DNA of 45,137 nt from Escherichia phage vB_Eco_Sem3, in the sequence record PV775410.1, one strand, 5' to 3'. Below, piece by piece: positions 13,160 to 44,502 of this stretch; positions within the stretch are counted from its first letter, which is position 1; each line of letters starts with the position of its first letter. The notes beneath the pieces are model-generated. The model did not search any database, was not told the origin of the DNA, and worked only from the letters and a program-made list of their open reading frames with translations. The translations under genes were made by a program, and so were the position numbers.

Positions 13160-13175
13160 GTCTCACATGTGAGAC
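13160..13175. repeat. Perfect 16-bp palindrome GTCTCACATGTGAGAC (intergenic hairpin element, copy 1)
   Basis: Read directly; flanked by CCT/AGG extensions; followed on the transcribed strand by TCTTTAT. Confidence 0.8.
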
Positions 13176-13192
13176 AAGCCTTGAGTTAGATA

Positions 13193-16141
13193 CTACAACT
13201 TAAATTTACCTACCTTAGAACCTTTAGCTAGCTTGGTAGGTGCAGCCTCATAAACTTGATACCAACCATTCGCGCCAATACGTTTATGAGTCCATGCCGA
13301 GACAGAGCCTGCTGGCATAGGTCCACCAAACCTAACCCACATGGAGCCATCTTCACGAGTCTCCACTTCGGTAATCTTAGGCACACCACCAGCAGATGCC
13401 ATATTGTATGCCTCAGCGCGTCGCTTCAGTAGACCAGGGATACGCTTACCTTCACTTGATGCAGTGCCCAGCATTTCGATAAAGCCTTCCGTAAGCTTAC
13501 CAGCTTTGAATGCAGCAAGAGCACGCGGTGAGTTCTGGATTCCACCTTTACCTAAATTGTAGGTTAAATCCATCAAGCCACGTTGCTGTGCAGGATGCAT
13601 CTGGTCAAACGGAATCTTCCAGTCACGAGTAGGAGGCACATGCTTCTTGGCATCTTGCTCCATAAGAGCGCGAGCCTTGCTCTCTGTAAGCTGAGACATA
13701 GACCCTCGATAGGGAACTAGTTCATCACCAATCTTAATATACCCGTTTCGCTTCTCTTCTTCCGTTAAGAAATGACCGTAACCGATAGACTCACCGCGAG
13801 CGTCTTTATATGGAGTAAAGGTTCCAGTTGCTCTATTAAAGCCAACTTTGTCTTTATTCTCATCCATAGCTAGCTTGTCATAGAATTGTTGCATATTACC
13901 TCGATAGTTAATCTCGAAGTTAGAAGGCAGATTCTCACCAGAAGCAAAAGCTGAAGACATGAGGAAGTTAGCTAGTCCAAATTTACCAATATCTTTGGCA
14001 GTTGGTTTAGCTGGCATAGGCTCTTGTACACCAATATCTGTACGATACGGGTGAACATACTCGCCTTTATCTCGTTCCTCTACTTTCTTCTGATAGGCAG
14101 AATCTAGTAGTGAAGTAGTATCTAAAGAGGTTACAGGGATTACTCCAGAAAGAGGGCGACCTGCTGCACCAGCACGAATCACAAAAGTTCCTTTCTGTTC
14201 ATTGTAATCAATGTATATATCATCTTTAGTTTCCCACTCTTGAAGCTCCTTCTTCAATTCTGGCATCTGTGTTTCTACATACCTACCAAGCGCCAGAGGT
14301 ACATCGGTAGGGTTTACGCCTTTCCCAACTGACATAAGCATATCAGATGCAGAAGTGTAATCACCTTTAATGAAATAGCCACCGGAAGTCTTTGCATCCT
14401 CTGTTTGAGTGTAGCGTTTATTGCCCCAAGTAATTAAAGCCTTCTTGATAGAATCCATGTTACGCATACCACTAGACCACAACATATTGGCCTTAGCTCG
14501 TAACTCTTCTTCCGCAATAGCTTTACCTAAGTCTGACACTTCGGTTTTACCATCAAACCAGCCAGCACCAGATACCTCATCCAGTGCATCTCCAATAGCT
14601 GAGTTGAACTTCTTGGTTTCCTTCTCAGTACGAGAGAATTTCTGCTGTGCTTCACGCGCAAACCTTGCAGCCTGCAAGGGTGTCTCTCCCATTTGTAGTG
14701 CAGTGTTGTAGTTATCCATGTAGCCATTCACCGTGTCACCAAAGACACCTCGGCTCTCTTCTGGTAACTGTTCCCACAACTGGCGAATAGTCATCAACTC
14801 CTGTGGTTCGCCCTTGGCAAAGTGCTCAGGCGATAGCATAGATTCCATGGCTTTGATACGAGACTCAAAGGTATCATCCACTAAGCCTTTGGAGTTCATG
14901 AATTGCAGGCGCTGCACTTCCACTGCACCACGAATAGCTTCAGCCTCTTGACTGTAAGGGTCCAAGCCACGTTGTTTGATTTGCTGGTCTGCATAAAGTT
15001 GGCTATCCTGTTTGATAACATCAATGTAAGCCTTCTTCTCTTTATCAGTCTTACCTTGGAAGCCAGTAAGGCGGTCGGAGTAAAGCTCACGTCGCATATC
15101 CTGCATTGCACCTAGCTCTGCATTCTGCTTAGCCCGTTGGCGCATCAGTGCCTCTAGCTCTGGATTAGAGAAGACAGAGTTACCTGTCAGATTATTAATG
15201 TGCTGTGCTCGTTCCAACAATTCTTCATCAGTTAAATCACCTGCAAGGTAGGATTCTTTAACTTCGAAAGACATACGAGTTACATCAGCTACATTATTCC
15301 TAGCCCAAACTGCATTACCACTAGTGATGGCTGTGATAAGCTGTGGATTCTTAGCATAAACAGAAACACCCTTATCGTCCTTCACATACTTCAGGGCTTC
15401 AGCCATGCTAACATCACCGCCTTGTGCAAGTGAAATTGCTCGCTGGACTAACTTCTTGTGCATCTGTTCAGGTAGTAACCCTTGAGTAAGACCTTCGCGG
15501 ATTCGTTCCTGTAAAGCATAGCCAGAGGCTTCAGGGTCAATATTAGAATCCCAAGTAGAAGCCACTCGCCCGTCAAAGGTATCCTCACGGTCTGCTTGTT
15601 CACGGTCAAGTTTATGCTGGGTTCGTGTAGCCCAAATCTGAGGCTGCTGTTCTTGGAAGACATTAGTGACCATACGCATAGTATCTTTGTCACCTTGCAA
15701 CTCAGGGTATTGCTGGAACAGCTTATTCTGCATCTCATTACGAGAGTCAACCATAAGTTGTGTCCACTCGTCATCCGTTCCTTGGAAACGAGTAGCCATG
15801 TCTTTCATTCGTGCTGCTTCATCATTAGCTAGCAGTTGAGCTTTGACAAGCATGTTAGCACGAGCGCCACCACGAGTTGCATCCTCAGAAGGCATTAATC
15901 CGTTATATGCCCGTTCCATTTGAACAACCTTATCTTCCTCAATCTTTTGATTAAGGATACCAGTGGTTACATCAGCTACACTACTGGCTGCTCGAATAAG
16001 GTCTTCGATAAATCGACTACCGGAGGTAGAAGCTACGCCAGCCTCCACACCTCCAACTCGCTGAGGTGCAAAGGTCATGACATTAGGGGAAGTGGCCTGC
16101 ACTTGTGGCAGACCTTGTACTGCTTGTCGCTCAATTGCCAT
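13193..16141 (-). CDS. Internal virion protein with lysozyme-like peptidoglycan hydrolase domain, 982 aa
   Basis: C-terminal region (…GYGHFLTEEEKRNGYIKIGDEL…LTESKARALMEQD…GLMDLTYNLGKGG…) looks like a phage lysozyme fold; TAATG overlap with the upstream gene. Confidence 0.6.
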   Translation of the reverse strand: MAIERQAVQGLPQVQATSPNVMTFAPQRVGGVEAGVASTSGSRFIEDLIRAASSVADVTTGILNQKIEEDKVVQMERAYNGLMPSEDATRGGARANMLVKAQLLANDEAARMKDMATRFQGTDDEWTQLMVDSRNEMQNKLFQQYPELQGDKDTMRMVTNVFQEQQPQIWATRTQHKLDREQADREDTFDGRVASTWDSNIDPEASGYALQERIREGLTQGLLPEQMHKKLVQRAISLAQGGDVSMAEALKYVKDDKGVSVYAKNPQLITAITSGNAVWARNNVADVTRMSFEVKESYLAGDLTDEELLERAQHINNLTGNSVFSNPELEALMRQRAKQNAELGAMQDMRRELYSDRLTGFQGKTDKEKKAYIDVIKQDSQLYADQQIKQRGLDPYSQEAEAIRGAVEVQRLQFMNSKGLVDDTFESRIKAMESMLSPEHFAKGEPQELMTIRQLWEQLPEESRGVFGDTVNGYMDNYNTALQMGETPLQAARFAREAQQKFSRTEKETKKFNSAIGDALDEVSGAGWFDGKTEVSDLGKAIAEEELRAKANMLWSSGMRNMDSIKKALITWGNKRYTQTEDAKTSGGYFIKGDYTSASDMLMSVGKGVNPTDVPLALGRYVETQMPELKKELQEWETKDDIYIDYNEQKGTFVIRAGAAGRPLSGVIPVTSLDTTSLLDSAYQKKVEERDKGEYVHPYRTDIGVQEPMPAKPTAKDIGKFGLANFLMSSAFASGENLPSNFEINYRGNMQQFYDKLAMDENKDKVGFNRATGTFTPYKDARGESIGYGHFLTEEEKRNGYIKIGDELVPYRGSMSQLTESKARALMEQDAKKHVPPTRDWKIPFDQMHPAQQRGLMDLTYNLGKGGIQNSPRALAAFKAGKLTEGFIEMLGTASSEGKRIPGLLKRRAEAYNMASAGGVPKITEVETREDGSMWVRFGGPMPAGSVSAWTHKRIGANGWYQVYEAAPTKLAKGSKVGKFKL

Positions 16142-16861
16142 TAAATACCTCTTGTTCCAGATGAATATGTACGAGAATCAGTTAAAGCTTTACCTAAAGC
16201 CATGCCGGACTTACTACCTGTTACATAGGCAGATGCCAGACTCGGTATACCTTGCACCAAGGTGCTCACGGCAGAAGGCTTCTTAAACTCACGCATCTGC
16301 ATCTGTCCACCTCGCTGGATAGATTTAAGCTGATTGGTGAAGTTAATCTTCTGATTCTCATAGTTATCAATAATTGTACTCTGGTTCCTCCCGCCCTCTG
16401 CTGCTAAGTCATTCAGCATAGAAGATACAGAGTTACCACCAGTACCAGTAGCACCTGCTAGTAATGCAACCTGTGCTCGCTGCTGTAGTAGTGAAGCCTG
16501 ATTGCTTATTGCATCTGCATGATATTGTTTAGCAGCAGAACGCTCTGCATCTGCTACTGTTTTGTATGCTTCTTGTGTAGCAATAAGTTGCTGCCGCCAC
16601 TGTTCTTCTTGTGCTTTCTTCATTGCCTTGGCTTCATCACTTCCACCAAAGAGATCACCAATCAAGCCTAAACCTTGAAGGCCAGCACCAAGAAGCCCAG
16701 CATTAGAGAAGCCAGCAGTAGAGCCGCTTAGGAAGCCACCTAGAGAACCTAGCAAGCCTCCGCCACCTGCGGCAGCACCTCCAGCAGCGGCTGCTGCAGC
16801 TGCCTGTAAACATACTACCAATAGAAGACATACCAGCCATAACGGCAGAACCTATAGCCAT
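16141..16861 (-). CDS. Internal virion protein A-like (Gly/Ala-rich), with an apparent frame discontinuity near the 5' end
   Basis: Strong RBS AAAAGGAGGG plus ATG at 16861 (TAATG-coupled to tail tubular B) opens a frame that turns Cys/Arg/Trp-rich after about 20 codons; the long Gly/Ala-rich ORF (16141-16821) is in the +1 frame and has only a TTG start with no RBS. Confidence 0.5.
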
Positions 16862-19263
16862 TAGACCCTCCTTTTGGTTGGATTGTAGCTCCCTTCCCAC
16901 TCAATATCACGAAGCTGGAATGTGTGGGGTGACTCTACAATAATACGATAAACAACATCCGTGCTCTTAGCTCTCAGTGGAAATCTGAAGACACCTTCTC
17001 TCGGTTCAACATAGCCTACTGTATTATTGAGAGCACCACCTATACGGTTTGACGCTAATACTCTACGTACTTTACCACTCTTCACATTCTTAACTTCTAC
17101 GGAGAAATCGGGGTACATGTCAAGATTAAGGTGAACCAATCCTACAACTGGTACATCAATATAGGATACACGGTCTTGATTGTCTCTGATAACCACAGGT
17201 GTAGGTTCAAACTCTTGAGGGTAAATCTGACCAACAATAACCTTCGCTTTTACATGACTGTCATCATACATATCAAAGGTTGTAGACAAAGTATTGTCAC
17301 TAGGGTTGTACTTGAATAAGAAAGAGCCACCAATATATGAATCCCAACCCTCGATTAAGATGCAATCTAAAAGTTCTGGGTTAGTAGGAGTCCAAGGAAG
17401 CGGTTCAGACACCCATTCATCTTCTGCTTTAAAATACTTGAAGACTAACTCTGCTTGCCTATCCATTCTGATGCGGTCATTCAAACCGTAGGTTAGTGCA
17501 TCACCCATGTCCATCTTCTCCAGATATACGCCATCTCCTCGCTCAAGGAGCAGGTAAAGTAATTCACCAGAATAAAACATACCTCGCACCTTTGTACCTA
17601 TAGGCCACTTCCATACATGCCATGCCGATTGTACACGGTCTGTTCCTTGCCATAACCAATCGTAGCAGTAGATTATGTTACGATACTTATCGGTAGTGAC
17701 AAGTAACCTGTTGACATTGGTGCTTGCTGCCATGTTGGTAATGTTACCTTCGATGAGTTTATTCACATGACTTGTGATTGCTTGTGCCTTCTTAGTGTCA
17801 CTATAAGAGTCTGTATAGAACTCTCGTACACCAGAGTAAGAACCATCATTAGTGGCAAACATTACCGATTCACCAGTTACTACTGGCTTCACTTTATTGT
17901 TCACTTCAAATGTTGTAACAGGCTTAAGAAGTGCATTTGACTTCTCTAAAGGCTTATCGCCTGGCAGTATGAATTGTGACTTATCAGAGAACAACACGGT
18001 AGCGCCATCTAAGGTCACTGCATGTTTTAGCTGGTAGACTTCACTAGCATCTGAGAAAATATCAAATGGGTCAGTTGCCAATGCAGAGATAACCGTATAA
18101 CGAAAGAAATCGAAGAAGTATGATGTACGAGAAGCAATAACCGCTTCACCTGCTGTAAAGCATAGGCGGTTCTGCACCATGAACATTCCACCTATTGTCT
18201 GGGGTACCTCCTCATCAATAAAAGAGGGCATAGGGTTAGTCAAGTCATCCCCTACTTTACGATCTTCCCAATCACCTTGTCTTATCTTGAATTGAGCTAT
18301 GCCGTTGATGATATCTGTACGTTCAATAATGTAAGGCATTGTGCCTTTATCAAACCCAAGTAATACATCAGCAGCTATTGTTTCTTTCCAAGACACAAGG
18401 TTTCCCTCTTTAGGCTCAGCTTGCAGCCAGTAACGAGACTCAGGTTTGCTGCCAGTAGGCCACACTTGTACTTTATAACCAGCAGGCGCACGAGAAGGGA
18501 GTAGGTCAGTAGAGCTAACTTTATTCTTGATAGCCACTAAGTCCTTACCTTTTGCACCATCGGTGGTTGTTATTGTAAAGCTAGCACCATCCCGTCTCTC
18601 GATAAATATACTAGTACCGTCTCTTTGTATTTCATAGTCACTCACACCGCTCCATTGCTGCAACTTAGAGTACAATTCAGAAGTGATACGTTCAGTTCGA
18701 ATTTGTTCAACATGGTCTGCACTTCCACCATCCGGTGTTTTAAAACTAGCAGCGTTGGTCCCATTAATTACAATGGAATAAGATGTACCATATTGACCAT
18801 ACGCACAAAACACAATGGCTTTGTTTCCAACTTTAGGTGACTTCCTGTTACTAGCTTTAACTACCTTCCTACGATTAAGCATGAAAGTAACATCAGCTAT
18901 CGTCATGAATTGTACATCTTCCCTTGGATTAACAACCTCAGAGAGGTAGGTCATAGGTGCATCTTGTGAAGTAACATTACATTTGCGCCCATACTTATCA
19001 AATATCTCAGGAACTTGTCCTTTCTTCAACGTGAAGAAATACTCTTCATCACCATCACCTCTGCGATAATGATGAATAGCCATGTCATCAGTCCCCGCAT
19101 CAAGTATCTTTGCAATATGAGTTGTACCCATGCGTGATTGAGTACCATTCACTACATCAGGTATCATATTAACCATAGCTGTGCACTGACCATCCAAGCG
19201 TACCGCTGGCGGCTGCTGGCTAATCCCTTGGATTTGTCTACCTAATGAACCTTGTACTTCCAT
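16861..19263 (-). CDS. Tail tubular protein B
   Basis: About 800 aa, T7 gp12-sized; start at MEVQGSLG with RBS GGGAGGA and a 1-nt overlap with the tail tubular A stop. Confidence 0.85.
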   Translation of the reverse strand: MEVQGSLGRQIQGISQQPPAVRLDGQCTAMVNMIPDVVNGTQSRMGTTHIAKILDAGTDDMAIHHYRRGDGDEEYFFTLKKGQVPEIFDKYGRKCNVTSQDAPMTYLSEVVNPREDVQFMTIADVTFMLNRRKVVKASNRKSPKVGNKAIVFCAYGQYGTSYSIVINGTNAASFKTPDGGSADHVEQIRTERITSELYSKLQQWSGVSDYEIQRDGTSIFIERRDGASFTITTTDGAKGKDLVAIKNKVSSTDLLPSRAPAGYKVQVWPTGSKPESRYWLQAEPKEGNLVSWKETIAADVLLGFDKGTMPYIIERTDIINGIAQFKIRQGDWEDRKVGDDLTNPMPSFIDEEVPQTIGGMFMVQNRLCFTAGEAVIASRTSYFFDFFRYTVISALATDPFDIFSDASEVYQLKHAVTLDGATVLFSDKSQFILPGDKPLEKSNALLKPVTTFEVNNKVKPVVTGESVMFATNDGSYSGVREFYTDSYSDTKKAQAITSHVNKLIEGNITNMAASTNVNRLLVTTDKYRNIIYCYDWLWQGTDRVQSAWHVWKWPIGTKVRGMFYSGELLYLLLERGDGVYLEKMDMGDALTYGLNDRIRMDRQAELVFKYFKAEDEWVSEPLPWTPTNPELLDCILIEGWDSYIGGSFLFKYNPSDNTLSTTFDMYDDSHVKAKVIVGQIYPQEFEPTPVVIRDNQDRVSYIDVPVVGLVHLNLDMYPDFSVEVKNVKSGKVRRVLASNRIGGALNNTVGYVEPREGVFRFPLRAKSTDVVYRIIVESPHTFQLRDIEWEGSYNPTKRRV

Positions 19264-20011: not shown

Positions 20012-20047
20012 ACAAAAAGAACCCTACCTACGCAAGGTAGATAGGGC
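20012..20047 (-). terminator. Hairpin plus U-tract terminator after the major capsid gene (T-phi-like)
   Basis: Minus strand reads GCCCTATCTACC-TTGC-GTAGGTAGGG followed by TTCTTTTTG. Confidence 0.65.
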
Positions 20048-29400: not shown

Positions 29401-29772
29401 TCAAAATTCTTCCTCTTCGCTTACCGGAGTTTCCGGTGCAGCTACTTCTTCTGCTGGAGCTTCAGCTTCTTCAGCAGCCTTAACTTCTTTCACTGGTTTA
29501 CCAGCAGCAACCCAATCCAGATATTCAGCTACGATATTAGCCTTACCAATCTGAGCTTTGTCAGCCTGCTCAGGGAAGCAAGCACGAGCGAACTCCAGAC
29601 CAGCAGCGAAGTTACCCATGCTGTCAATCTTAGCCTGAGCTTCTTCACGAGTATCATAAGCCTTAGTACCAGCTACCAGTTGATCAGCTTCATCGACGAT
29701 AATGAAAGACTCAACGGATACCAGAGCAGCACCTTTAACAACACGGTTTACGATAGTTTCAATCTTGAACAT
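29401..29772 (-). CDS. Acidic-tail protein, 123 aa (C-terminus …PVSEEEEF)
   Basis: An acidic C-terminal tail ending in Phe is the hallmark of T7 gp2.5 and gp4 DNA-polymerase-binding tails; this could be the SSB or another replisome partner. Confidence 0.55.
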   Translation of the reverse strand: MFKIETIVNRVVKGAALVSVESFIIVDEADQLVAGTKAYDTREEAQAKIDSMGNFAAGLEFARACFPEQADKAQIGKANIVAEYLDWVAAGKPVKEVKAAEEAEAPAEEVAAPETPVSEEEEF

Positions 29773-29822: not shown

Positions 29823-29844
29823 TCTTCTATAGTGTCCAGTAAAT
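29823..29844 (-). promoter_or_regulatory. Phage RNAP promoter
   Basis: Minus strand reads ATTTACTGGACACTATAGAAGA. Confidence 0.7.
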
Positions 29845-29858
29845 ACCGGACACCGATT

Positions 29859-29875
29859 TGTCTCACACGTGAGAC
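29859..29875. repeat. Palindromic hairpin element GTCTCACACGTGAGAC (copy 2, CACGTG-centre variant)
   Basis: Read directly; sits between a gene stop and the promoter at 29823-29844. Confidence 0.75.
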
Positions 29876-30104: not shown

Positions 30105-30911
30105 TTAATATTCCGCGTCCTCATCCATCTCCGGTGCAGGAGTATCTTCTGCTTCAGGTACTTCCTGTGGAACAGACTCACCAGTATCCAGAGATTTACG
30201 ATTATCTGGAGTAGCATCCTCGTCATCTTTCTTCTTGGCTTTCTTCCACTCTGGGTCTTCTTCACGAGCAGCTTTAATGATTGCTTCTACGTGAGAACCA
30301 GCAACAGACAGGTTCTTACCACGAGGTGTTTCATTAAGGAAGTATTGACGCACCAAGTTAGCTGGGATGTCATCAAGGATTTCTTTGGTCAGCTTGTCGA
30401 AGGTGATATGACCTGTCATAGACAGACCTTCCTCTTCTACCTGAGCCAGTACAAGCTTCTTCAACTTATCAGGCATACCGCCAAAGCCTTTCCAGTTAAC
30501 ATACTTGAAAGTACCATCATCATTCTTGTCGCCAGAGCCAACCATAGTTGCAGTCAGGCATTCACCGATGAAGTCATCGAAACCACCAAGCAGCTCTTTA
30601 GGGTCAACTGCATTCAGGAACTTAGTCAAGGTTGCCTTGTCACCAGACTTCAGAGGCACAGCCATCCACTGTTCCATGCGAGAATCATCTTCATTCTTGT
30701 CGTCGTCACCCATCAGGATAATCTTAACAAGAACAAAGTTTGCTGGCTTCTTAACCTCAGTGGTATTACCTTTCTTAAAAATATCTTGGAAGGAACCAAC
30801 ATGAATGATGCCAGAGATTACTGCTTCATGATCACCAACTTCAGGGTTCTTAAATACTTTACCTTCAGCCTTAGTAACCTGAGCACCAAAATCAAAATCA
30901 CCACGTGCCAT
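30105..30911 (-). CDS. Putative ssDNA-binding protein (gp2.5-like architecture) with acidic C-terminal tail …EMDEDAEY
   Basis: 268 aa; long acidic C-terminal tail ending in an aromatic residue; position in the replication module. Assignment is tentative. Confidence 0.4.
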   Translation of the reverse strand: MARGDFDFGAQVTKAEGKVFKNPEVGDHEAVISGIIHVGSFQDIFKKGNTTEVKKPANFVLVKIILMGDDDKNEDDSRMEQWMAVPLKSGDKATLTKFLNAVDPKELLGGFDDFIGECLTATMVGSGDKNDDGTFKYVNWKGFGGMPDKLKKLVLAQVEEEGLSMTGHITFDKLTKEILDDIPANLVRQYFLNETPRGKNLSVAGSHVEAIIKAAREEDPEWKKAKKKDDEDATPDNRKSLDTGESVPQEVPEAEDTPAPEMDEDAEY

Positions 30912-31525: not shown

Positions 31526-31547
31526 TCCTTCTATAGTGTCCAGTAAA
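31526..31547 (-). promoter_or_regulatory. Phage RNAP promoter
   Basis: Minus strand reads ATTTACTGGACACTATAGAAGGAA. Confidence 0.7.
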
Positions 31548-31830
31548 TCATGTTAGACAAAATAAGTAGGGATAAGTTATCCATAAAGGCCACTCGTAAG
31601 TGACCTTGAGTATAACTCAGTCGTAGTTACCATCACAATCCGGGTCAATGCCAGAGAAGGCCCAGAGTACTACCATAAATAATATGATACCAAGAATAAT
31701 AAAAGCAGTTTGCATTAGTCGTAACCCTCTTCTTCATCAGGTATATCTAGTCTCATACTCCCATAACAAGCAAGCATAAGGAGTGTAAGAAAGAGAGTGA
31801 AGAATAGGCAAATAATGTCAAGCCTATCCA

Positions 31831-34852: not shown

Positions 34853-34953
34853 CCTCCCTCCTTTCTGGTTTAGGTTGCATTGAATCTTGGAAATCCCAAT
34901 CAGAATCATAATCACGTGGCATAATGCACCTCCAATCAACATGATAAAAGGCT

Positions 34954-34969
34954 GTCTCACACGTGAGAC
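34954..34969. repeat. Palindromic hairpin element GTCTCACACGTGAGAC (copy 3)
   Basis: Read directly; followed on the transcribed strand by CCTTTTAT. Confidence 0.75.
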
Positions 34970-34979
34970 AACCCTTGAC

Positions 34980-35156
34980 TTATCGACTGCGAATCTTACG
35001 TTTCACTTCACTTTCCTTGATAACCTGTTCACGAGTGAGACTATTCTTCTTGGCCTCAGCCATAGTTAACTGTGCGAACAGAAAGGCTTGGTTAGTAATC
35101 TTGGCTTGCAGGTCTTCATGACCATCGAACATTTTAAGACTATGTTTATTCTGCAT
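34980..35156 (-). CDS. Hypothetical protein, 58 aa (MQNKHSLKMFDGHEDLQAKITNQ…)
   Basis: Hand-called ORF below the track cutoff; overlaps the upstream gene stop. Confidence 0.35.
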   Translation of the reverse strand: MQNKHSLKMFDGHEDLQAKITNQAFLFAQLTMAEAKKNSLTREQVIKESEVKRKIRSR

Positions 35157-36064: not shown

Positions 36065-36097
36065 TCTCCAGTTATTTAATGTACTTAATAAGAGCCT

Positions 36098-36113
36098 GTC
36101 TCACATGTGAGAC
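36098..36113. repeat. Perfect palindrome GTCTCACATGTGAGAC (copy 4) with CCT/AGG extension
   Basis: Read directly; followed on the transcribed strand by GGCTCTTATT. Confidence 0.8.
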
Positions 36114-36130
36114 AAGCCCTGATAAATACA

Positions 36131-36292
36131 CTAGATAAGGCGTGTTACAATAAAGAACATTGACATCATAAAACCAGATGCAACGATAAGTTTCACTGCT
36201 TTCTTGAAGCCATATCGTGCAGCATAATCTGCGATCACAAGCATGAATAGGATCTCAATACCGATATTCAATACTGGTTTAATAATTTCCAT
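36131..36292 (-). CDS. Small hydrophobic protein, 53 aa (MEIIKPVLNIGIEILFMLVIADYAARYGF…)
   Basis: Hand-called; ATG overlaps the primase/helicase stop (TAATG). Confidence 0.4.
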   Translation of the reverse strand: MEIIKPVLNIGIEILFMLVIADYAARYGFKKAVKLIVASGFMMSMFFIVTRLI

Positions 36293-38280
36293 TAAAACTC
36301 CTGTTCATCGTCAAAAGTTGTCTCTTCTATAGTGTCCGGTAAATCCGGCACTTCTTGTTGCCTTGCTTCACCTGTATCAAATGACTTAGTACGGGCTTGT
36401 GGTTCCATTAAACGTCCGGTTTGAATGTCACCCTTAAGCATGACCTTGGTTCCAGTGTAGATACCTTGGTCGCGGTCTTTGACACATGAGATGTACGTGG
36501 TAGTCCGTTCATCAAGCGTTTCAGCTCTTGTATTACGCTCAATCCCCAAGGCGTAAGATGCCCAGAATCCGATAGCGCCTGAACCTCGGAAGTCAGAAAG
36601 GATAACCTCGCCACCTTCTTCGTGTTGGGTACGGTTTGCCGGAGGACGTGTAAGGTGTGATACAAGGAATATAGTAACCGGGTGTCGGTCTTTGATAGTA
36701 CCAATCCGCTTGACGCATTCATCAAGTGCACCAACCTTCCCACCAAAAGCACGCTCATCTAATTTAATCCCCGTTAAGTTATCAATGATGATATTAGAAA
36801 TGCCCATAGCCTCAAACTCTAGGCAAGTTTGCTCTACCTTTTCCATCGAATAGTCACCCTCTAGGTCAGCTACAAACAGCTTACCTGTATCAGCTACATA
36901 ATCAATGGCGGCGTTAGCCTCTTCCTCGGTGTAGTCGAACACCTCACGGTATCCATCTTCTTTCGGGTCGTTGGTTGGCGGTAACTCAATACGCTTATCA
37001 ATCCACTTGCCGATAAAAGCACGGGACACCTTGACCATCGGGTCTTCTGTAGAAATGATGCCTACAGATTCACCGTGTTCTTCAATGAGGTGCTTAACTA
37101 CTTCACGAAGGAACTCAGTCTTACCCACACCAGAGCCTGCGCCTACAATGATAAGTTGGTTCTTACGAATACCTAGCGTTACCTTGTTCAGCTTAGGCCA
37201 AGGCCATGATAGTCCTTGCTCTGGACGTGCAGCCTTGAGCTTATCCCTTTGAGATGCGATAGATTTAATCTGGCTACCAAAGACTTCATCAGATGACTTG
37301 GCATTAAACCATGCATCTACAAACTCTTTAGCCTTGCCAGCCATCAATGCCTTGTTAGCATCTTTGCAACCAGATGGATATTCGAGGATGTAGGATTTGC
37401 CAGGAAACAGGCGAGCAGCTTGTTGGTTCTGCTTCTGCCCCACCTCGTCGCCATCAAAGCCCCATATAATCTTCTTGAATTGGGCTATGTGCTCACGGTT
37501 TTGCACTATCTCTTCAAGGCAAGACTCACCTTTATTGACAGACCATACATGGTATGGCTGACCTTCCCACTTAGTACCTTTGGCAGAATCAAGGAGCATC
37601 TGCTGCGCTGCTAGTGCATCAAGTTCACCGCCTACAATAAGCAAGCAATCCTTTCGTCTCCCCTTGTCTAACACGTGAGACAAAGTATTCATACCGAAAA
37701 GATCTTGCATGCCAAAGAGTTTACCTAAATGACCAAACTTAAAATCTTTAGGTAATGTGCGACACTTAGCTCCTACTAGCTCACCTTTCTCGAAGCGTGG
37801 ATAGTAATGCCGCGAGACTCTACCCTCTTCATCGTGTCCGACACGTACATCATACAATGCGCAAATGTCGCCGCGAATGTGTCTGGAAACAAGGTTCTTA
37901 CGCTTAAGCGTGAGGAACCATTCAACATCAAGTTTCCACTCTGCTTCTTGGTCTGCCCTTTCTTGCTCATTCATGACCTCCCAACGGTCTTTCATACGCA
38001 TACCACCAAGAGCGATGGCGCGTAGCTTAGGGTCGCTTATCTTCCCTTCCTTCTCCATCTCTTTGAATTGAGAAGGTGTGTATTTGATATTGCCAGTAAT
38101 AGGCAACTCGGTTATCTCGATGCCTCCCTCTGGCTTATGATAGTAGGGTCTACCATTATCATGAAAGTGACCACGGTTACAATAGCCAGCACCATCATCA
38201 AATATCATGAGATGATTGCCGGATTTATCGTGCCCATTCTTCTGGCAGGCAGGGCACGGGATGTTATTAATAATAGCCAT
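36292..38280 (-). CDS. Bifunctional DNA primase/helicase (T7 gp4-like)
   Basis: N-terminal zinc ribbon (…CPACQKNGHDKSGNHLMIFDDGAGYCNRGHF…), Walker A …VGAGSGVGKTEF…, acidic C-terminus ending …DDEQEF. Confidence 0.9.
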   Translation of the reverse strand: MAIINNIPCPACQKNGHDKSGNHLMIFDDGAGYCNRGHFHDNGRPYYHKPEGGIEITELPITGNIKYTPSQFKEMEKEGKISDPKLRAIALGGMRMKDRWEVMNEQERADQEAEWKLDVEWFLTLKRKNLVSRHIRGDICALYDVRVGHDEEGRVSRHYYPRFEKGELVGAKCRTLPKDFKFGHLGKLFGMQDLFGMNTLSHVLDKGRRKDCLLIVGGELDALAAQQMLLDSAKGTKWEGQPYHVWSVNKGESCLEEIVQNREHIAQFKKIIWGFDGDEVGQKQNQQAARLFPGKSYILEYPSGCKDANKALMAGKAKEFVDAWFNAKSSDEVFGSQIKSIASQRDKLKAARPEQGLSWPWPKLNKVTLGIRKNQLIIVGAGSGVGKTEFLREVVKHLIEEHGESVGIISTEDPMVKVSRAFIGKWIDKRIELPPTNDPKEDGYREVFDYTEEEANAAIDYVADTGKLFVADLEGDYSMEKVEQTCLEFEAMGISNIIIDNLTGIKLDERAFGGKVGALDECVKRIGTIKDRHPVTIFLVSHLTRPPANRTQHEEGGEVILSDFRGSGAIGFWASYALGIERNTRAETLDERTTTYISCVKDRDQGIYTGTKVMLKGDIQTGRLMEPQARTKSFDTGEARQQEVPDLPDTIEETTFDDEQEF
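36321..36344 (-). promoter_or_regulatory. Phage RNAP promoter, CCGGT class
   Basis: Minus strand reads ATTTACCGGACACTATAGAAGAGA; embedded in the 3' end of the primase/helicase gene. Confidence 0.65.
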
Positions 38281-38683: not shown

Positions 38684-38699
38684 GTCTCACATGTGAGAC
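38684..38699. repeat. Perfect palindrome GTCTCACATGTGAGAC (copy 5)
   Basis: Read directly; 6 nt from the promoter at 38657-38677. Confidence 0.8.
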
Positions 38700-38841
38700 A
38701 ACCTAGATCTGCCCTTCCTCTAAGTAGTAATAAGAGGAAGGAAGGAGGTAATAGGTATTCCTAGATAACCTATATAGCCTTTAATACCTATTACTTCCTT
38801 TTATATCCTTTATCTTCCCTTTTCTTTCCTGTCTCCGACGG

Positions 38842-38864
38842 CTATCCTATAGTGTCCGGTAAAT
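38842..38864 (-). promoter_or_regulatory. Phage RNAP promoter, CCGGT class (first promoter after the RNAP gene)
   Basis: Minus strand reads ATTTACCGGACACTATAGGATAG. Confidence 0.65.
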
Positions 38865-38866
38865 AA

Positions 38867-38882
38867 GTCTCACATGTGAGAC
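38867..38882. repeat. Perfect palindrome GTCTCACATGTGAGAC (copy 6)
   Basis: Read directly; 2 nt from the promoter at 38842-38864. Confidence 0.8.
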
Positions 38883-38914: not shown

Positions 38915-38947
38915 GTAAAAGAAAAGGCCACTCCCGAAGGAATGGCC
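38915..38947 (-). terminator. Intrinsic terminator downstream of the RNAP gene (early terminator)
   Basis: Minus strand reads GGCCATTCCTTCGGGAGTGGCC followed by TTTTCTTTTAC. Confidence 0.7.
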
Positions 38948-38955
38948 TATTAATA

Positions 38956-41583: not shown

Positions 41584-41646
41584 CTTGTTTACTCCTAGTG
41601 AAAGAAACCTTAATAGGTGACACCTAAGAAGATGCCACCGATAAGG

Positions 41647-42570
41647 TTACTTAGTTAATTCTTCTACTGCCTCAGAGATTAAGGGCCATGCTTCATGGCC
41701 TTCGCCGTATCCTAGCTTAACCAGTTCGCGGCGTGCCTTGTTAACTGCTGTTTTCTTCGTTGCCTCCTCAGCGCTTAAACCTAAGCGAGCATAGAAGCAG
41801 GAAGATTTGAATTGCGGCAGCATAGGCGCGGCTGCTTTCTTGCTTTCGCGTGCGCTGCTTAAGGAGGCAATGCGGTCATTAGCTGCCTGTAATTGCTCGG
41901 TCAGTGCTTTAATTTGTGCCAGAAGGCCAGCAATAGCGGCACTCTCGGTGTTAGCCGTGTTATCCAGTGGCGCGGCCTTAGGCGCTTCCGGCTTGCTTTC
42001 ATCTTCCCACGGTGCGGATTCGTCGTTACCCGACTCACTTGCTGGCGGCACACTTTGTAATTCCTCTTTCGCCTTCTCTAAGATGAAATCCTCAAAGGTT
42101 GCATGTCCTTGCATAGTTTCTGCGGCCTCAGTCGCATTCTCCTGCGGTTTTACCGCCTCAGACTTAGATTGTACCGTCTCGGCCTTTGTCTCTTTCTTAG
42201 GATCAATCAGGGCGTTTACGGCGTTAGTGTCCAGCTTGCCCTCTGCGGCGAGTTCTGCGGCCTTCTCCATGATCATATTTTCATCAGCGAAAGGAACAAG
42301 CGCCAGCATTACACGCATAGCCACACCTTTAAAGCGTTCGTCTCCTTCAAAGACACGGGCTACACTCATCAGCTTGTAGCATTGTGCTTTCTTGATGCCG
42401 AACTCTGATTCTACATAAGCTAAAAAGTCTTTTTGACCTTCGAAATCACCGCGTAATTCATTCAGACAAGCGCCAACTTTGATGTAAGAAGTGCCGATAT
42501 TGTCTAAGTGCTGCTTGATTTCAGCGGTTGCAGCTTCACGAACAGACAGAAGGATGTTTTCAGTAGTCAT
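41647..42570 (-). CDS. Early protein of unknown function, 307 aa
   Basis: Start at MTTENIL (RBS AAGGTGA); N-terminal globular region, long acidic Ala/Pro/Glu-rich linker, small C-terminal domain; occupies the T7 gene 0.7 position but has no kinase motifs. Confidence 0.6.
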   Translation of the reverse strand: MTTENILLSVREAATAEIKQHLDNIGTSYIKVGACLNELRGDFEGQKDFLAYVESEFGIKKAQCYKLMSVARVFEGDERFKGVAMRVMLALVPFADENMIMEKAAELAAEGKLDTNAVNALIDPKKETKAETVQSKSEAVKPQENATEAAETMQGHATFEDFILEKAKEELQSVPPASESGNDESAPWEDESKPEAPKAAPLDNTANTESAAIAGLLAQIKALTEQLQAANDRIASLSSARESKKAAAPMLPQFKSSCFYARLGLSAEEATKKTAVNKARRELVKLGYGEGHEAWPLISEAVEELTK

Positions 42571-42631
42571 ATTAATCACCTTATAGTGTAAGTAAATATC
42601 ACATAGCCCACATAGGCAGGCTATAGGCTAG

Positions 42632-42859
42632 TTACTTGATGTAATGCCACGTTTCTATAAATGCATCTTTGCTAATGGCGCATTCCGTGCCGTTAGGTGC
42701 AATGTATTCTACAAGCCCACCTCTTACACAAAGGTAATTACCGCCTTCCTTTCTTAGTTTGCGTTTAGCTTTATCAAATAAGAACTCACGGTAAAGATGA
42801 TAGGAGCACCAGCTTAAGCCAATAAGAGCAAATGCCATAATGATGCTATCTAAATCCAT
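42632..42859 (-). CDS. Early small membrane protein, 75 aa
   Basis: RBS AGGAG; N-terminal TM helix IIMAFALIGLSWCSY, then a basic soluble domain. Confidence 0.55.
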   Translation of the reverse strand: MDLDSIIMAFALIGLSWCSYHLYREFLFDKAKRKLRKEGGNYLCVRGGLVEYIAPNGTECAISKDAFIETWHYIK

Positions 42860-42922
42860 AGTCTTAACTCCTAGTAAGTGAAAGTTTAATCAGGCGCTAC
42901 CGTAGCAACGCCTTGTTAAGCC

Positions 42923-42945
42923 TTCTCTTATAGTGTCAGCTAAAT
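42923..42945 (-). promoter_or_regulatory. Degenerate phage promoter-like sequence (GTCAGCT variant)
   Basis: Minus strand reads ATTTAGCTGACACTATAAGAGAA; lies upstream of the RNAP gene, where a phage promoter would not be expected to act early. Confidence 0.3.
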
Positions 42946-43051
42946 AGTTTGTATGTAGTACCTAGCACTTCCTCACGAATCTGAGCGAATCGTAGGGAAC
43001 ACTTCAGGGTTACACCGTCTGAAAAGATGAAGTTGTATAGCTTTTCCATTC

Positions 43052-43408
43052 TTATTCCTCTTCTTCTTTTTCTAAATATTCGGCAGAGTTGACGTATTCA
43101 ACAATCATATACTGAACACGTTCCCATAGATCAATTGTGAGTTGCTCATAGATACGGGCTTGCAATACTACGGTTACATCCTTAGTGTCTGGCATCAGGC
43201 CGGAGTCTTCGAAGAAATGATCAATTCCTTCACTCGCCATCACGGAGAAGATGTCAGCATAATAGATTGGTACAGCACTATCCGCCGCATCATGGATTGC
43301 ATCATGTGCGTTATCAATACAATCAATAGCATCATTCCAGATACGTTCAACTAATGCAGCATGAGCAGTGTTGTAAACCTGAGAGTAAGTCATATTAGAC
43401 ATAGCCAT
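43052..43408 (-). CDS. ocr: Ocr-like DNA mimic, anti-restriction protein (T7 gp0.3 homolog)
   Basis: Start at MAMSNMTY (RBS GAGGA); …[43 protein letters not shown]…[15 protein letters not shown]… is near-identical in blocks to T7 Ocr as I recall it; acidic C-terminus. Confidence 0.85.
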
Positions 43409-43759
43409 GTTGTTAATCCTCATTTAGTTAGTTAGGTTACATTATAGGAGACTCAAGAGAATCCCCTAGGTTTAACCTATCCAGACTAAGAAGCTTCTAT
43501 CCAAATTGTTAAAGAGCGTGGCTTGTGCCTTGATAGGCTGACTAGTGCCAGCCTTTACTTTAAATCAGTGAGAAACAGCCATACCACTCTTTGAAGCTAG
43601 ATTGGTTTTCCAGTGGTAATATTTCAAGTTTACCATTGACCATACGTTCTACACAAATTAAACCTTTCATGATAATTACCTTAGTTAGTTAGCCTATCAA
43701 GACACAAACCGTATTGTTAAAGAGCGGGATGTTTAAAGACGTCGCCGTCTTGATGCTTA

Positions 43760-43788
43760 ATGTAACCTTGTATGCCGTGGCTGTCAAT
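43760..43788 (-). promoter_or_regulatory. Putative host sigma70 early promoter P2 (TTGACA-N17-TACATT)
   Basis: Minus strand reads TTGACAgccacggcatacaaggtTACATT; followed by a hairpin (AAGACGGCGACGTCTT) and the conserved GCTCTTTAACAAT box. Confidence 0.5.
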
Positions 43789-43795
43789 AGTTAAT

Positions 43796-44005
43796 TTAAA
43801 CTTTATTGCTATTTACTTCTTCCCACTCCAAGGAGTGTTGATTCAGGCTGTTAATCACTCGTTTGTGAGATAACTTGCTTTCAAACTGAAGATAAAACAT
43901 CTCAGTACCATCGTTGAGGTTGTACGTCTGACATTCTGCCTTGTACAAATCGCAGATAGCTTTAGCCGATTTATTGCAATCCGTGTAAATCTCATGTTTA
44001 AACAT
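43796..44005 (-). CDS. Early hypothetical protein, 69 aa
   Basis: RBS AAGGAG; ATG overlaps the stop of the upstream ORF. Confidence 0.55.
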   Translation of the reverse strand: MFKHEIYTDCNKSAKAICDLYKAECQTYNLNDGTEMFYLQFESKLSHKRVINSLNQHSLEWEEVNSNKV

Positions 44006-44174
44006 TGGTTAGCTCCTTCATCAGGTCACGTTTCTGGTTAACTGTATCGGTCCAACCTTCGTTCAGAAAGCGGTGATACAAGGCTAACTCGTCATCTGTA
44101 AGCAATTCGTTGTTACGAATCATGTAGCATAGCAGAGTAAAGATAGCGGACAGTTCACGGTTAGTTAGAGTCAT
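43998..44174 (-). CDS. Early hypothetical protein, 58 aa (MTLTNRELSAIFTLLCYMIRNNELLTDDELALYHRFLNEGW…)
   Basis: Hand-called; RBS GGAGG; ATGA overlap with the upstream ORF. Confidence 0.5.
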   Translation of the reverse strand: MTLTNRELSAIFTLLCYMIRNNELLTDDELALYHRFLNEGWTDTVNQKRDLMKELTNV

Positions 44175-44270
44175 GATAAAGCCTCCACAAACTCAGCATA
44201 AGACAAAGGCTCTTCTCCTCTCACTAATGCGTTATAGTAATAGGCTTTATACAGTTTTTCGTAATTCATA
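44172..44270 (-). CDS. Early hypothetical peptide, 32 aa (MNYEKLYKAYYYNALVRGEEPLSYAEFVEALS)
   Basis: Hand-called; RBS GAGGAA; first ORF downstream of promoter P1. Confidence 0.35.
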
Positions 44271-44390
44271 GCTAATTCCTCATTCAATAAGTAATTAACC
44301 ACGGCATACATAGGTTACACTAAGCAAATTGTTAAAGAGCAAGGTAACTTAGTTACCTACCGTTTGGCTATGTTGCCTCCCGATGACTGT

Positions 44391-44419
44391 AATGTACTAC
44401 CAGCTATTACCTATGTCAA
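44391..44419 (-). promoter_or_regulatory. Putative host sigma70 early promoter P1 (TTGACA-N17-TACATT)
   Basis: Minus strand reads TTGACAtaggtaatagctggtagTACATT; followed by a perfect palindrome GGTAACTAAGTTACC and the GCTCTTTAACAAT box. Confidence 0.5.
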
Positions 44420-44486
44420 CACTAAATTTCACTAAGATAGATTATTTATGTGATACATGTCACAACTACTAAGGTAAACCTAGGTT

Positions 44487-44502
44487 GTCTAACATGTGAG
44501 AC
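44487..44502. repeat. Imperfect copy of the intergenic palindrome (GTCTAACATGTGAGAC, copy 7)
   Basis: Read directly; one mismatch to the perfect palindrome; lies between the ACTAAG repeat array and promoter P1. Confidence 0.6.

Follow-up and report, generated by a model that had tools for sequence, protein, structure and literature searches.

The RNase III processing sites of phage T7 were reportedly mapped by Dunn and Studier in 1983, and bacterial REP elements, which form RNA hairpins at cistron ends, are also bound as DNA by proteins. One of the T7 sites, R1.1, has been studied in work that gives the minimum stem for E. coli RNase III as 11 bp (PMC1540722). In the T7-like vibriophage VIB04, dispersed and mutually similar palindromes trigger the Lamassu DdmABC defence, a role shown with plasmid-borne copies (PMC11707656). 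Here we analyze a 16-nt palindrome that recurs in a 45,137-nt stretch of DNA (the window) from Escherichia phage vB_Eco_Sem3 (PV775410.1), a K1E/SP6-like phage (Vectrevirus) with all of its genes on the minus strand. Like REP elements, the 16-mer is a short, repeated and mostly intergenic palindrome; REP elements, however, are longer, imperfect and chromosomal, whereas the exact 16-mer is no more frequent in bacterial genomes than chance predicts, and a search of E. coli, Salmonella, Klebsiella and Erwinia returned none. VIB04 and the SP6-like phages each have a family of near-identical palindromes spread across an autographivirus genome, of which some members, but not all, resemble T7 RNase III sites; VIB04 differs in host and phage lineage, and the likeness drawn here is one of description.

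The window was searched with GTCTCACATGTGAGAC, allowing up to three mismatches. This returned eight matches, none with more than two mismatches, against 0.19 expected, and none of 100 shuffles reached eight; GTCTCACRYGTGAGAC matched six times against 0.00 expected. Four copies are perfect (13160, 36098, 38684 and 38867), two have an AC/GT centre (29860 and 34954), and those at 44487 and 37666 carry one and two mismatches, respectively. A preliminary description of this DNA had judged the repetition to be beyond chance, as these counts bear out. All seven sites it listed were recovered, with one start corrected from 29859 to 29860, but it had missed the eighth copy, at 37666. The seven are intergenic by the window's own ORFs; the claim that the palindrome is confined to intergenic DNA was nevertheless wrong, with 37666-37681 lying inside the primase/helicase ORF and relatives holding further intragenic copies, in RNAP and ligase genes besides primase.

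Comparison with 11 Molineuxvirinae genomes, using the strict consensus GTC-Y-M-AC-RY-GT-K-R-GAC, revealed five to nine copies in each of the 11, against about 0.005 expected, and the syntenic conservation that the preliminary description had proposed to look for was found. The left-end copy lies 480-860 nt from the genome end in 10 of the 11 under this consensus (the copy in Nifs112 has two mismatches), and a phage promoter core follows within 45 nt downstream of 26 of 85 copies, where about 2% would be expected; this holds also across genera whose promoter sequences differ. In Eracentumvirus, the RNase III-type scaffold upstream of the DNA polymerase block ('pol' in Table 1) has another apex, and five to seven copies without a scaffold are kept. 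The 16-mer is a real, conserved and separable palindromic module of intergenic control regions in SP6/K1E-like phages (Molineuxvirinae), separable because that scaffold carries a different apex, because the 16-mer stands alone elsewhere, and because the window also contains an RNase III hairpin without it.

Table 1. Palindrome copies and associated elements in the window. All lie on the minus strand. R1 and R2 are the covariance models described in the text; a caret marks the predicted RNase III cut.
Feature	Position	Strand	Basis	Fold (kcal/mol; z)	R1 sense vs antisense (bits)	Predicted RNase III cut
16-mer core, perfect; apex of full hairpin 'IVP', between two large internal-virion-protein genes	13160..13175	-	pattern search, fold			
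Full T7-type RNase III hairpin 'IVP'; lower stem including upstream stop codon, internal loop ACUC/UAUGA, 13-bp upper stem, core as cap	13134..13199	-	fold, models R1 and R2 (R2 30.2 bits, E 2.6e-5), T7 motif register	-23.8; -2.76	71.2 vs 29.4	between 13150 and 13149 (..UCUUUAU^GAU..)
16-mer core, GT centre on sense strand; apex of full hairpin 'pol', upstream of small ORF/HNH/DNA polymerase block	34954..34969	-	pattern search, fold			
Full RNase III-type hairpin 'pol'	34928..34993	-	fold, model R1	-27.8; -4.49	71.8 vs 23.5	between 34944 and 34943 (..CCUUUUAU^CAU..)
16-mer core, perfect; apex of full hairpin 'prim', after primase/helicase and gene 9.5	36098..36113	-	pattern search, fold			
Full RNase III-type hairpin 'prim'	36072..36137	-	fold, model R1	-31.5; -5.86	81.6 vs 43.3	between 36088 and 36087 (..CUCUUAU^UAA..)
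Cap-only copy 'rnap1', after host-type terminator behind RNAP gene; upstream of promoter P1 (38847-38864)	38867..38882	-	syntenic in all genera examined			
Cap-only copy 'rnap2'; upstream of promoter P2 (38661-38678)	38684..38699	-	syntenic in Vectrevirus, SP6, UAB78, KpnP_VR702			
Cap-only copy 'g18', begins 1 nt past gene 17 stop codon; upstream of promoter 29827-29844	29860..29875	-	pattern search, fold			
Second hairpin at g18 site, GGUGUCCGGU-AUUU-ACUGGACACU; upstream segment pairs with promoter ~-12 to -4	29831..29854	-	fold	-22.2; -4.04 (two-hairpin fold)		
Cap-only copy at genome left end, sense GTCTCACATGTTAGAC, C.U at pair 5; upstream of early promoter region	44487..44502	-	pattern search			
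Core copy within primase/helicase gene (ORF 36292-38280, -), sense GTCTCACGTGTTAGAC	37666..37681	-	pattern search, ORFs			
Related element without 16-mer: canonical T7-like RNase III hairpin, apex AAGGUCACU-UACG-AGUGGCCUU	31563..31627	-	R2 41.7 bits, E 1e-8; fold			between 31583 and 31582
Half core GTCTAACATG directly fused to promoter 31531-31548	31549..31558	-	pattern search			

Three of the copies (13160, 34954 and 36098) cap long sense-strand hairpins that are very probably T7-type RNase III processing sites; their homology and structure are observed, and cleavage is what these would imply. The three sites are paralogous and mutually alignable, and their folds are stable (z -2.8 to -5.9). 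Across 24 such sites from eight genomes, pairing holds in 96.3% of cells and drops to 35-44% if the partner is slid, changes on both sides occur at 12 of 22 pairs, and the covariation score is 0.496 against at most 0.12 for slid partners. Many pairs are G.U, on the sense strand only, and at the same loci the sense strand exceeds the antisense strand by 28-48 bits (71-82 vs 23-43 bits) under R1, a covariance model built only from the 16-mer-capped hairpins. In T7, R1 has exactly five matches (E 5.5e-6 to 3.8e-3), every one of them on the plus strand and just upstream of gene 18.5, 0.3, 0.5, 1.1 or 4.7; following T7 naming convention, we take these to be the RNase III sites R0.3, R0.5, R1.1, R4.7 and R18.5. 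The reciprocal model R2, built from T7 sites, finds T7 R6.5, a site absent from its training set, together with window positions 13132-13202 and 31563-31627 and the IVP sites of SP6, PP1 and BigMira. It gives no direct match to the 'pol' and 'prim' sites, which are too diverged, so that their link to T7 runs only through R1.

The five T7 sites and the full sites of the window share the same architecture of lower stem, asymmetric internal loop and upper stem, as well as the flank motif ACUCAAGG..CCUUUAU^GA(U), and six T7 cleavage coordinates, which we take to be those of Dunn and Studier (1983), all fall at one position in the motif ACUCAAGG..CCUUUAU^GAU. Both kinds of site are found where one cistron gives way to the next on same-strand polycistronic transcripts, and often a phage promoter is close by. 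They differ in the upper stem, which has 13 bp in the full sites and about 9-10 bp in T7, and in the apex: the top 7 bp of the full sites are the 16-nt palindrome, nearly fixed in sequence and also free-standing elsewhere in the genome, whereas T7 apexes vary and none was found outside the RNase III sites, local-model matches in T7 being the five full sites only. The window hairpins at 13134-13199, 34928-34993 and 36072-36137 each combine a lower stem with an internal loop, and no fewer than 11 bp separate the predicted cut site from the loop. The palindrome forms the apical 7 bp of the hairpin. In the mechanism that these features suggest, host RNase III would make a single cut (..CUUUAU^GA..), placed on the 3' side of the internal loop, splitting upstream from downstream cistrons; the hairpin would then remain on the upstream mRNA, capping and protecting its 3' end, and the new 5' end would lie just ahead of the next ribosome-binding site. 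Stabilisation of mRNA 3' ends, another function offered in the preliminary description, is thus at the three full sites a likely consequence of single-cut processing, by analogy with T7 and with R1.1 (PMC1540722). A literature search found no transcriptome paper for this phage group.

The remaining five copies consist of the cap only. Three of them precede phage promoters by 2-15 nt, another is found at the left end, and the fifth is inside the primase gene. Their stems of 6-7 bp fall below 11 bp and are too short for RNase III sites, so that the RNase III function offered in the preliminary description applies to three of the eight copies, where the palindrome caps a T7-family hairpin, and not to these five. 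The adjacency to promoters noted there for three copies was correct: on the transcribed minus strand, 38867, 38684 and 29860 end 2, 5 and 15 nt, respectively, upstream of promoters with the consensus ATTTACYGGACAsTATAG. Tentatively, the cap-only copies are best explained as being read by sequence, most likely as duplex-DNA half-sites, a reading that we infer, hold to be somewhat less likely than not, and place only slightly ahead of that as RNA hairpins. It corresponds to the operator for a dimeric DNA-binding protein raised in the preliminary description. A putative dimeric factor would bind the two half-sites GTC-Y-M-AC just upstream of promoters and of the origin-like region, and the RNase III hairpins would merely host the palindrome in a sequence-tolerant apex, much as T7 R6.5 hosts promoter phi6.5. 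The R2 match at R6.5 (18495-18583) spans that promoter, at 18545, and there too an RNase III hairpin encloses a DNA-level element, a promoter in T7 R6.5 where the full sites have the palindrome. The g18 site bears a similar likeness to T7 R13, in which an upstream segment also pairs with the promoter, and the g18 pairing survives in SP6, KpnP_VR702, PP1 and BigMira, whose promoter sequences differ, by way of compensatory changes; in contrast to R6.5 and R13, the g18 helix is only 10 bp, short for RNase III. Taken as a whole, the account in which three copies cap RNase III sites and five are read on DNA comes close to an even chance without quite reaching it.

An alternative proposal, which we regard as rather unlikely, is that all copies act only as sense-strand RNA hairpins, with the full sites serving as RNase III sites and nothing being read on DNA. 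Cap-only stem-loops could then mark or protect transcript ends near promoters, or bind an RNA-binding protein. The core is demonstrably within RNA structure at three sites, SP6-type cores show a sense-strand U.G wobble in six of nine SP6 copies and in all full-site copies found, and T7 RNase III sites likewise cluster beside promoters. Cap-only copies, however, fold no better than shuffles (z -0.17, +0.30 and +0.71), and syntenic cap-only copies retain C.U and A.G at pair 5 as well as C.A at pair 4, combinations that never occur in full-site copies. Several genera have mixed half-sites (TCAC/TAAC, CAAC/TAAC) at cap-only copies, and the core centre is always R-Y. Cap-only copies thus show the dyad symmetry with independently varying half-sites of an operator, with the spacing in BigMira, where five of six copies have a 17-bp version of the core, counting against this; such a core is awkward for a rigid dimer, while its extra centre base would be harmless in an RNA loop.

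Coding copies bear on the same choice. The copy at 37666 is read as xG-TCT-CAC-GTG-TTA-GAC (S-H-V-L-D), and its position in the primase gene is also occupied in SP6, UAB78, KpnP_VR702, PP1 and ZK1. In the two genera that prefer TCAC, the left half of the coding copy has changed from AAC (Asn) to CAC (His), a switch that breaks RNA pairing, since the right half is held at TTAGAC by the need to avoid a TGA stop; a mismatch thus takes the place of an available perfect pair, against a role as RNA alone. Left-end copies, moreover, lie upstream of the first early promoters, where we would expect sense transcription only across concatemer junctions. In favor of RNA, the 3' flank of cap-only copies is asymmetric, with A at +1 in 33 of 37 against T at -1 in 24 of 37; the A is conserved on the sense side only, which hints at strand-specific reading. 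The gap to the promoter also varies, from 0-1 nt in Eracentumvirus to the 15 nt seen in the window and 0-15 nt overall, and the fixed position relative to the promoter that an operator would have is not seen. K1-5, moreover, mixes three half-site types in a single genome, which also speaks against the DNA-level reading.

The preliminary description had also raised pause or termination hairpins for the phage RNA polymerase, which now appear highly unlikely. In their favor, the hairpins form on the transcribed strand, U-rich sequence follows some of them, some directly precede promoters, and 11 nt upstream of the left-end copy stands the heptamer ATCTGTT, presumably the class II pause signal of T7. 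The T-rich tracts reported 3' of some copies are real, but they are no free U-run: at the full sites this sequence is base-paired, as the 3' arm and internal loop of the longer hairpin (..CCUUUAUGA..). Cap-only copies are not terminators; no common U-run stands behind them, the 3' sequences being UUAUUUACC, UUCGUAUUU or AAAUCGGUG. None of the 16-mer copies has the stable GC-rich hairpin followed by an unpaired U-run of a class I terminator for a T7-like RNA polymerase. The window does have a terminator-like element of this kind at 20013-20047, behind the capsid gene, but it is another hairpin, rich in GC and followed by U5. Copies within primase, RNAP and ligase genes, furthermore, would truncate essential transcripts.

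Cap-only copies might instead be functionless, as remnants or by-products of an ancestral cassette of RNase III hairpin plus promoter, homogenised through recombination between copies (concerted evolution). The paralogy of the three full sites would fit such an origin, as would the near uniformity of core type within each genome; the half core fused to a promoter (31531-31558) and the 'core - half promoter - core' arrangement of phiEa100 resemble products of decay or rearrangement. We nonetheless consider this improbable: cap-only copies are syntenic across genera with only 60-75% identity in their most conserved proteins, despite diverged intergenic surroundings, intragenic copies keep the GTG and GAC codons in all lineages having the site, and Eracentumvirus retains its cap-only copies even though at least its 'pol' scaffold is without the 16-mer.

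Less probable still, at the level of the terminators, is that the palindromes are DNA cruciform or hairpin sites for recombination or repair by a phage junction-resolving endonuclease, or secondary replication starts. A 7-bp arm with a 2-nt centre makes a poor cruciform, and homology breakpoints against five relatives are not enriched at cores (four of 109 within 60 nt against 2.3 expected, a weak test). The foreign-type core at the K1-5 'pol' site would suit recombination, and copies are found to either side of the origin-like region that follows the RNAP gene, as well as near genome ends; for T3 and T7, retained pseudo-palindromes have been proposed to aid recombination (PMC3276506).

Returning to a DNA-level reading of the cap-only copies, we sought candidates for the binding protein. 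Pfam and PHROGs assigned nothing DNA-binding among the conserved unknown proteins, PDB sequence searches with three conserved proteins found no relatives, the AlphaFold2 model of an early 310-aa protein was unusable (pLDDT 48.8), and no protein had the Vectrevirus-plus-Eracentumvirus pattern matching the TCAC half-site preference; that no such protein emerged from Pfam, PHROGs or phyletic pattern favors the RNA-only alternative. It is with low probability that we put forward a phage-encoded, sequence-specific factor, co-evolving with its site, that would bind the GTC-Y-M-AC palindrome at about eight fixed places in SP6-like phages. To our knowledge, the T7 paradigm includes no site-specific DNA-binding regulator besides RNA polymerase, and a dedicated factor, if real, would constitute a regulatory or insulating layer new to it. 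Besides the tips of RNase III hairpins and sites within the primase, RNAP and ligase genes, these places would comprise the genome end and the DNA just ahead of the origin-like region and of the first middle promoters.

Every long open reading frame (ORF) lies on the minus strand and GC skew is negative along the full length of the window, so the transcribed sense corresponds to the window's reverse complement. The window shares about 92-97% identity with K1E, K1-5 and other Vectrevirus genomes (Molineuxvirinae, SP6-like phages) and is 100% identical to the Klebsiella phage vB_Ka_Sem4 across 12 kb. The major capsid, portal, tail tubular B and internal virion proteins, which are single ORFs in the window, are fragmented in the near-identical phage PV775411.1, whose CDS coordinates are offset by +2 at 28-40 kb and equal the window position minus 2 below about 28 kb, suggesting small indels or sequencing errors in either record.

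Thirteen SP6-type promoters, all on the minus strand, were identified with the pattern ATTTACYGGACACTATAG (up to four mismatches). For the 16-bp palindrome, the pattern GTCTCACATGTGAGAC (up to three mismatches) yielded eight occurrences against 0.19 expected, and the stricter GTCTCACRYGTGAGAC six against 0.00 expected. Six of the seven copies listed in the preliminary description were recovered at the positions reported there, and the seventh was moved from 29859 to 29860. The eighth copy, with two mismatches, falls within the primase/helicase ORF, and the earlier view that the element is confined to intergenic DNA must be abandoned; its reported proximity to promoters is borne out for three copies, at the distances tabulated.

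We compared the palindrome across ten relatives from six or more genera, oriented in gene sense (11 genomes with the window). The degenerate core GTC[CT][AC]AC-N2-3-GT[GT][AG]GAC is matched five to nine times in each genome examined, against about 0.005 expected. The search for syntenic copies in relatives, proposed in the preliminary description, located them across the genomes compared: at the left end, 480-860 nt from the end; directly 3′ of the RNAP gene (one or two copies); within the primase gene; 3′ of primase (prim); 5′ of the DNA polymerase gene (pol); 5′ of gene 18 (g18); and between the genes for the two large internal virion proteins (IVP), with lineage-restricted copies within the RNAP gene or the ligase/kinase region. 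Core type is near-uniform inside each genome and differs from group to group, being GTCTCAC/GTGAGAC in Vectrevirus and Eracentumvirus, GTCCAAC/GTTGGAC in KpnP_VR702, PP1, BigMira and ZK1, and GTCTAAC/GTTGGAC in SP6 and UAB78. The 16-mer is clearly a real and functional element, old within the subfamily, throughout whose history it is retained as a module at promoters and the genome end, and within essential genes too. That its free-standing (cap-only) copies are non-functional relics made uniform by recombination is quite improbable.

In 596 Gb of bacterial genomes the exact 16-mer has 75 matches, at or under chance, and none lies in E. coli, Salmonella, Klebsiella or Erwinia, on which grounds a host operator was rejected. 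An identical 16-mer forms the core of repeated palindromes in a high-GC actinobacterial-type viral contig (964-3019) and in two uncultured-bacterium assemblies (JAHISE01, PLZG01000018); these appear to be unrelated, independent palindrome families that match by coincidence.

Three copies (class A: IVP, pol and prim) sit at the apex of 66-nt sense-strand hairpins. In each, the lower stem takes in the upstream stop codon and is separated by an asymmetric internal loop from a 13-bp upper stem topped by the 16-mer, with folding energies of -23.8 to -31.5 kcal/mol and z-scores of -2.8 to -5.9. These sites can be aligned with one another and with their orthologues. Across the 24 aligned sequences, 96.3% of alignment cells are paired, and sliding the 3′ partner lowers this to 35-44%; two-sided changes affect 12 of the 22 pairs (covariation score 0.496 versus at most 0.12). 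G.U pairs are common on the sense strand, and the loci score 71-82 bits in sense against 23-43 bits in antisense.

A covariance model trained on the 24 Molineuxvirinae sites only (R1) produced five matches in T7 and none elsewhere (E 5.5e-6 to 3.8e-3), each directly 5′ of a gene. We identify these matches as RNase III sites because the adjoining downstream genes give those T7 sites their names; R0.3 has independently been placed between promoter A3 and gene 0.3 (PMC3276506). Conversely, a model trained on the five matched T7 sites (R2) recovers T7 R6.5, absent from its training set, and detects two loci in the window as well as the IVP sites of SP6, PP1 and BigMira. Ten T7 cleavage coordinates attributed to Dunn and Studier (1983), supported by their internal consistency, were used to fold T7. 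R0.3, R0.5, R1.1, R4.7, R6.5 and R18.5 share the flanks (A)CUCAAGG...CCUUUAU/GAU, and the assumed cut lands at the identical motif position in all six; the IVP site of the window reads aACUCAAGGcuu-16-mer-aggUCUUUAUGAUa. The comparison shows an RNase III hairpin family common to SP6-like phages and T7.

Coordinates of the palindrome copies and associated features (window unless stated; cuts are predictions)
Feature	Coordinates	Strand	Remarks
16-mer, IVP (class A)	13160	sense	hairpin 13134-13199; cut between 13150 and 13149
16-mer, pol (class A)	34954	sense	hairpin 34928-34993; cut between 34944 and 34943
16-mer, prim (class A)	36098	sense	hairpin 36072-36137; cut between 36088 and 36087
16-mer, g18 (cap-only)	29860		ends 15 nt 5′ of promoter
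16-mer (cap-only)	38684		ends 5 nt 5′ of promoter
16-mer (cap-only)	38867		ends 2 nt 5′ of promoter
16-mer, left end (cap-only)	44487
16-mer, primase/helicase (cap-only)	37666
g18 second hairpin	29831-29854	minus	10 bp
R2 match at IVP	13132-13202
R2 match, hairpin lacking 16-mer	31563-31627	minus	41.7 bits, E 1e-8; cut between 31583 and 31582
SP6 orthologue of that hairpin	12218-12278 (SP6)
Half palindrome with adjoining promoter	31531-31558	minus	GTCTAACATG
Phage promoters P1, P2	38847-38864, 38661-38678	minus
P1-P2 spacer	38700-38846	minus	about 150 nt, non-coding
Terminator-like element	20013-20047	minus	3′ of major capsid gene
Host-type intrinsic terminator	38917-38948	minus	directly 3′ of RNAP gene
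Heptamer ATCTGTT	44514-44520	minus	11 nt upstream of left-end palindrome
268-aa protein	30105-30911	minus
123-aa protein	29401-29772	minus
R1 match, T7	849-906 (T7)	plus	5′ of gene 0.3
R1 match, T7	1424-1484 (T7)	plus	5′ of gene 0.5
R1 match, T7	5844-5903 (T7)	plus	5′ of gene 1.1
R1 match, T7	13850-13908 (T7)	plus	5′ of gene 4.7
R1 match, T7	36813-36872 (T7)	plus	5′ of gene 18.5
R2 match, T7 R6.5	18495-18583 (T7)		covers promoter phi6.5 (18545)

Three of the eight copies are thus very probably T7-type RNase III sites with predicted cleavage, and the RNase III processing option of the preliminary description holds for these three by T7-family assignment. Judged by homology, the cuts should fall at the tabulated positions; such substrates are described as being cut once, in the internal loop, with a protective 3′ hairpin remaining on the upstream RNA (PMC1540722). 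An Rfam scan of the window at gathering thresholds gave no match, and public SP6 records annotate no RNase III site at the corresponding positions. Our literature search returned nothing relevant on the 16-mer or on palindromes, RNase III sites or transcriptomes of SP6, K1-5 or K1E; the 2004 genome papers (Dobbins 2004; Scholl 2004), which lay outside its reach, may list putative sites and may already note the RNase III part of this analysis. SP6/K1E-type phages are the source of a standard in vitro transcription enzyme and are employed therapeutically against K1 E. coli, Salmonella and Klebsiella, and their transcript processing has so far been deduced solely by analogy with T7. Three predicted RNase III sites are now mapped with cut positions, or four counting the hairpin that lacks the 16-mer.

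The 3′ arms of the class A hairpins (e.g. 13134-13150) loosely resemble the phage's own promoter core (..AUGACAUUA.. in the SP6 group versus GUGACACUAUAG), and those of T7 R0.3 and R0.5 the T7 promoter core (..UCACU.. versus CUCACUAUAG), which hints at derivation of RNase III sites from a promoter and its inverted copy. The arms do not follow promoter changes in BigMira and PP1, and the likeness may therefore be ancestral or due to chance.

The 16-mer module and the RNase III scaffold can be separated. In the window, the second R2 match is a T7-like RNase III hairpin of canonical form, whose short apex is also T7-like and lacks the 16-mer (GAGUUAUACUCAAGGUCACU-UACG-AGUGGCCUUUAUGGAUAACUU). At the Eracentumvirus pol site the scaffold is kept with a different apex, and the 16-mer of this genus is solely free-standing. 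T7 R6.5, with its promoter, likewise illustrates that an RNase III apex can carry a DNA-level element. The half palindrome of the window runs straight into a consensus phage promoter at the promoter's 5′ side.

Cap-only copies have stems of 6-7 bp, below the minimum of 11 bp from cut site to loop for E. coli RNase III (PMC1540722), so that RNase III cannot explain the free-standing module. They fold no better than shuffles (z -0.17, +0.30, +0.71) except at g18, where an upstream segment pairs with gene-18 promoter positions about -12 to -4 in a second hairpin (z -4.04) reminiscent of T7 R13, the upstream arm covarying with the differing promoter sequences of SP6, KpnP_VR702, PP1 and BigMira. 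Over the 11 genomes, a promoter core lies within 45 nt downstream of 26 of 85 palindrome cores, against about 2% expected, and the association is present in Eracentumvirus despite its quite different promoter. The termination or pausing suggested earlier is very improbable, as cap-only copies share no U-run on their 3′ side; the terminator-like element of the capsid gene (a Tphi-like GC hairpin with U5) and the host-type terminator are both unrelated to the palindrome in sequence. A recombination or replication site is also most improbable; homology breakpoints fall within 60 nt of a core in 4 of 109 cases versus 2.3 expected, and a recombination hot-spot was rejected for this lack of enrichment. 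Inconsistent flanks, together with the specificity of SP6 primase, which we take to recognise GCA, led us to drop a T7 primase GTC site.

Combinations that would not pair in RNA are retained in cap-only copies. C.A at pair 4 is seen at the left end of SP6 and UAB78, in the ZK1 group 3′ of the RNAP gene and at each end of the genome, and in the copy inside PP1 RNAP; C.U at pair 5 is seen at the left end and in primase of Vectrevirus and in RNAP and ligase of Eracentumvirus; and A.G is seen at the left end of Eracentumvirus. Pairs in class A copies are solely Watson-Crick or U.G. Coding copies all share the frame xG-TCY-MAC-GTG-TTR-GAC (Ser-Asn/His-Val-Leu-Asp), in which a perfect TCAC palindrome would introduce TGA as a stop codon, and the right half accordingly remains TTAGAC. 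Their left half switches from AAC (Asn) to CAC (His) in exactly the two TCAC-preferring genera, although GTCTAAC..GTTAGAC would pair perfectly; AAC is what genomes with CAAC/TAAC cores have, as does Vectrevirus RNAP, which retains no core. The palindrome centre is invariably purine-pyrimidine. Mismatches, codon switch and centre are evidence for a sequence (half-site) reading of cap-only copies, and we tentatively consider the module a putative duplex-DNA site for a dimeric factor, at somewhat less than an even chance. Against this stand the 17-bp version in five of six BigMira copies, the varying core-promoter distance, the conservation of the +1 A mainly on the sense side and the searches for a binder, all negative or unusable; a purely RNA-hairpin role is only slightly less probable.

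Those searches comprised scans of ten conserved proteins with Pfam and PHROGs, PDB sequence searches with a homologue search, and a screen of every sense ORF for its phyletic distribution over ten genomes, none of which gave a candidate binder; an AlphaFold2 model of the early 310-aa protein (pLDDT 48.8) was unusable. None of the E. coli operators considered (CRP, matS, SlmA site, GalR, PurR, DeoR, Ter) is known to fit the half-site order or spacing. The subfamily-conserved 268-aa and 123-aa proteins carry acidic tails whose last residue is aromatic (..DEDAEY, ..EEEEF), resembling the C-termini of T7 gp2.5 and gp4, which contact DNA polymerase. This suggests that both may be replication proteins, the former perhaps a single-strand DNA-binding protein.

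The free-standing, genus-tuned 16-mer is new and not accounted for by the T7 paradigm. As a protein-binding site it would reveal a new regulator; as an RNA or single-stranded DNA hairpin it would be a candidate trigger of palindrome-sensing defences such as Lamassu (PMC11707656), and either answer matters for engineering SP6/K1E-type genomes.

A small hairpin (CCGUCGGAGACAGG) forms the 5′ start of the P1-P2 spacer, which also holds a long inverted repeat, purine-rich/pyrimidine-rich and with TAGGT-like repeats. All ten relatives have a comparable non-coding spacer where T7 has its primary replication origin (phi1.1A/B); the spacer might serve as an origin or yield a non-coding RNA. Near the left-end palindrome, the heptamer ATCTGTT, matching the class II pause/termination signal at the T7 concatemer junction, is replaced by ATCTATT in K1E, K1-5 and SP6, within a well-conserved stretch.
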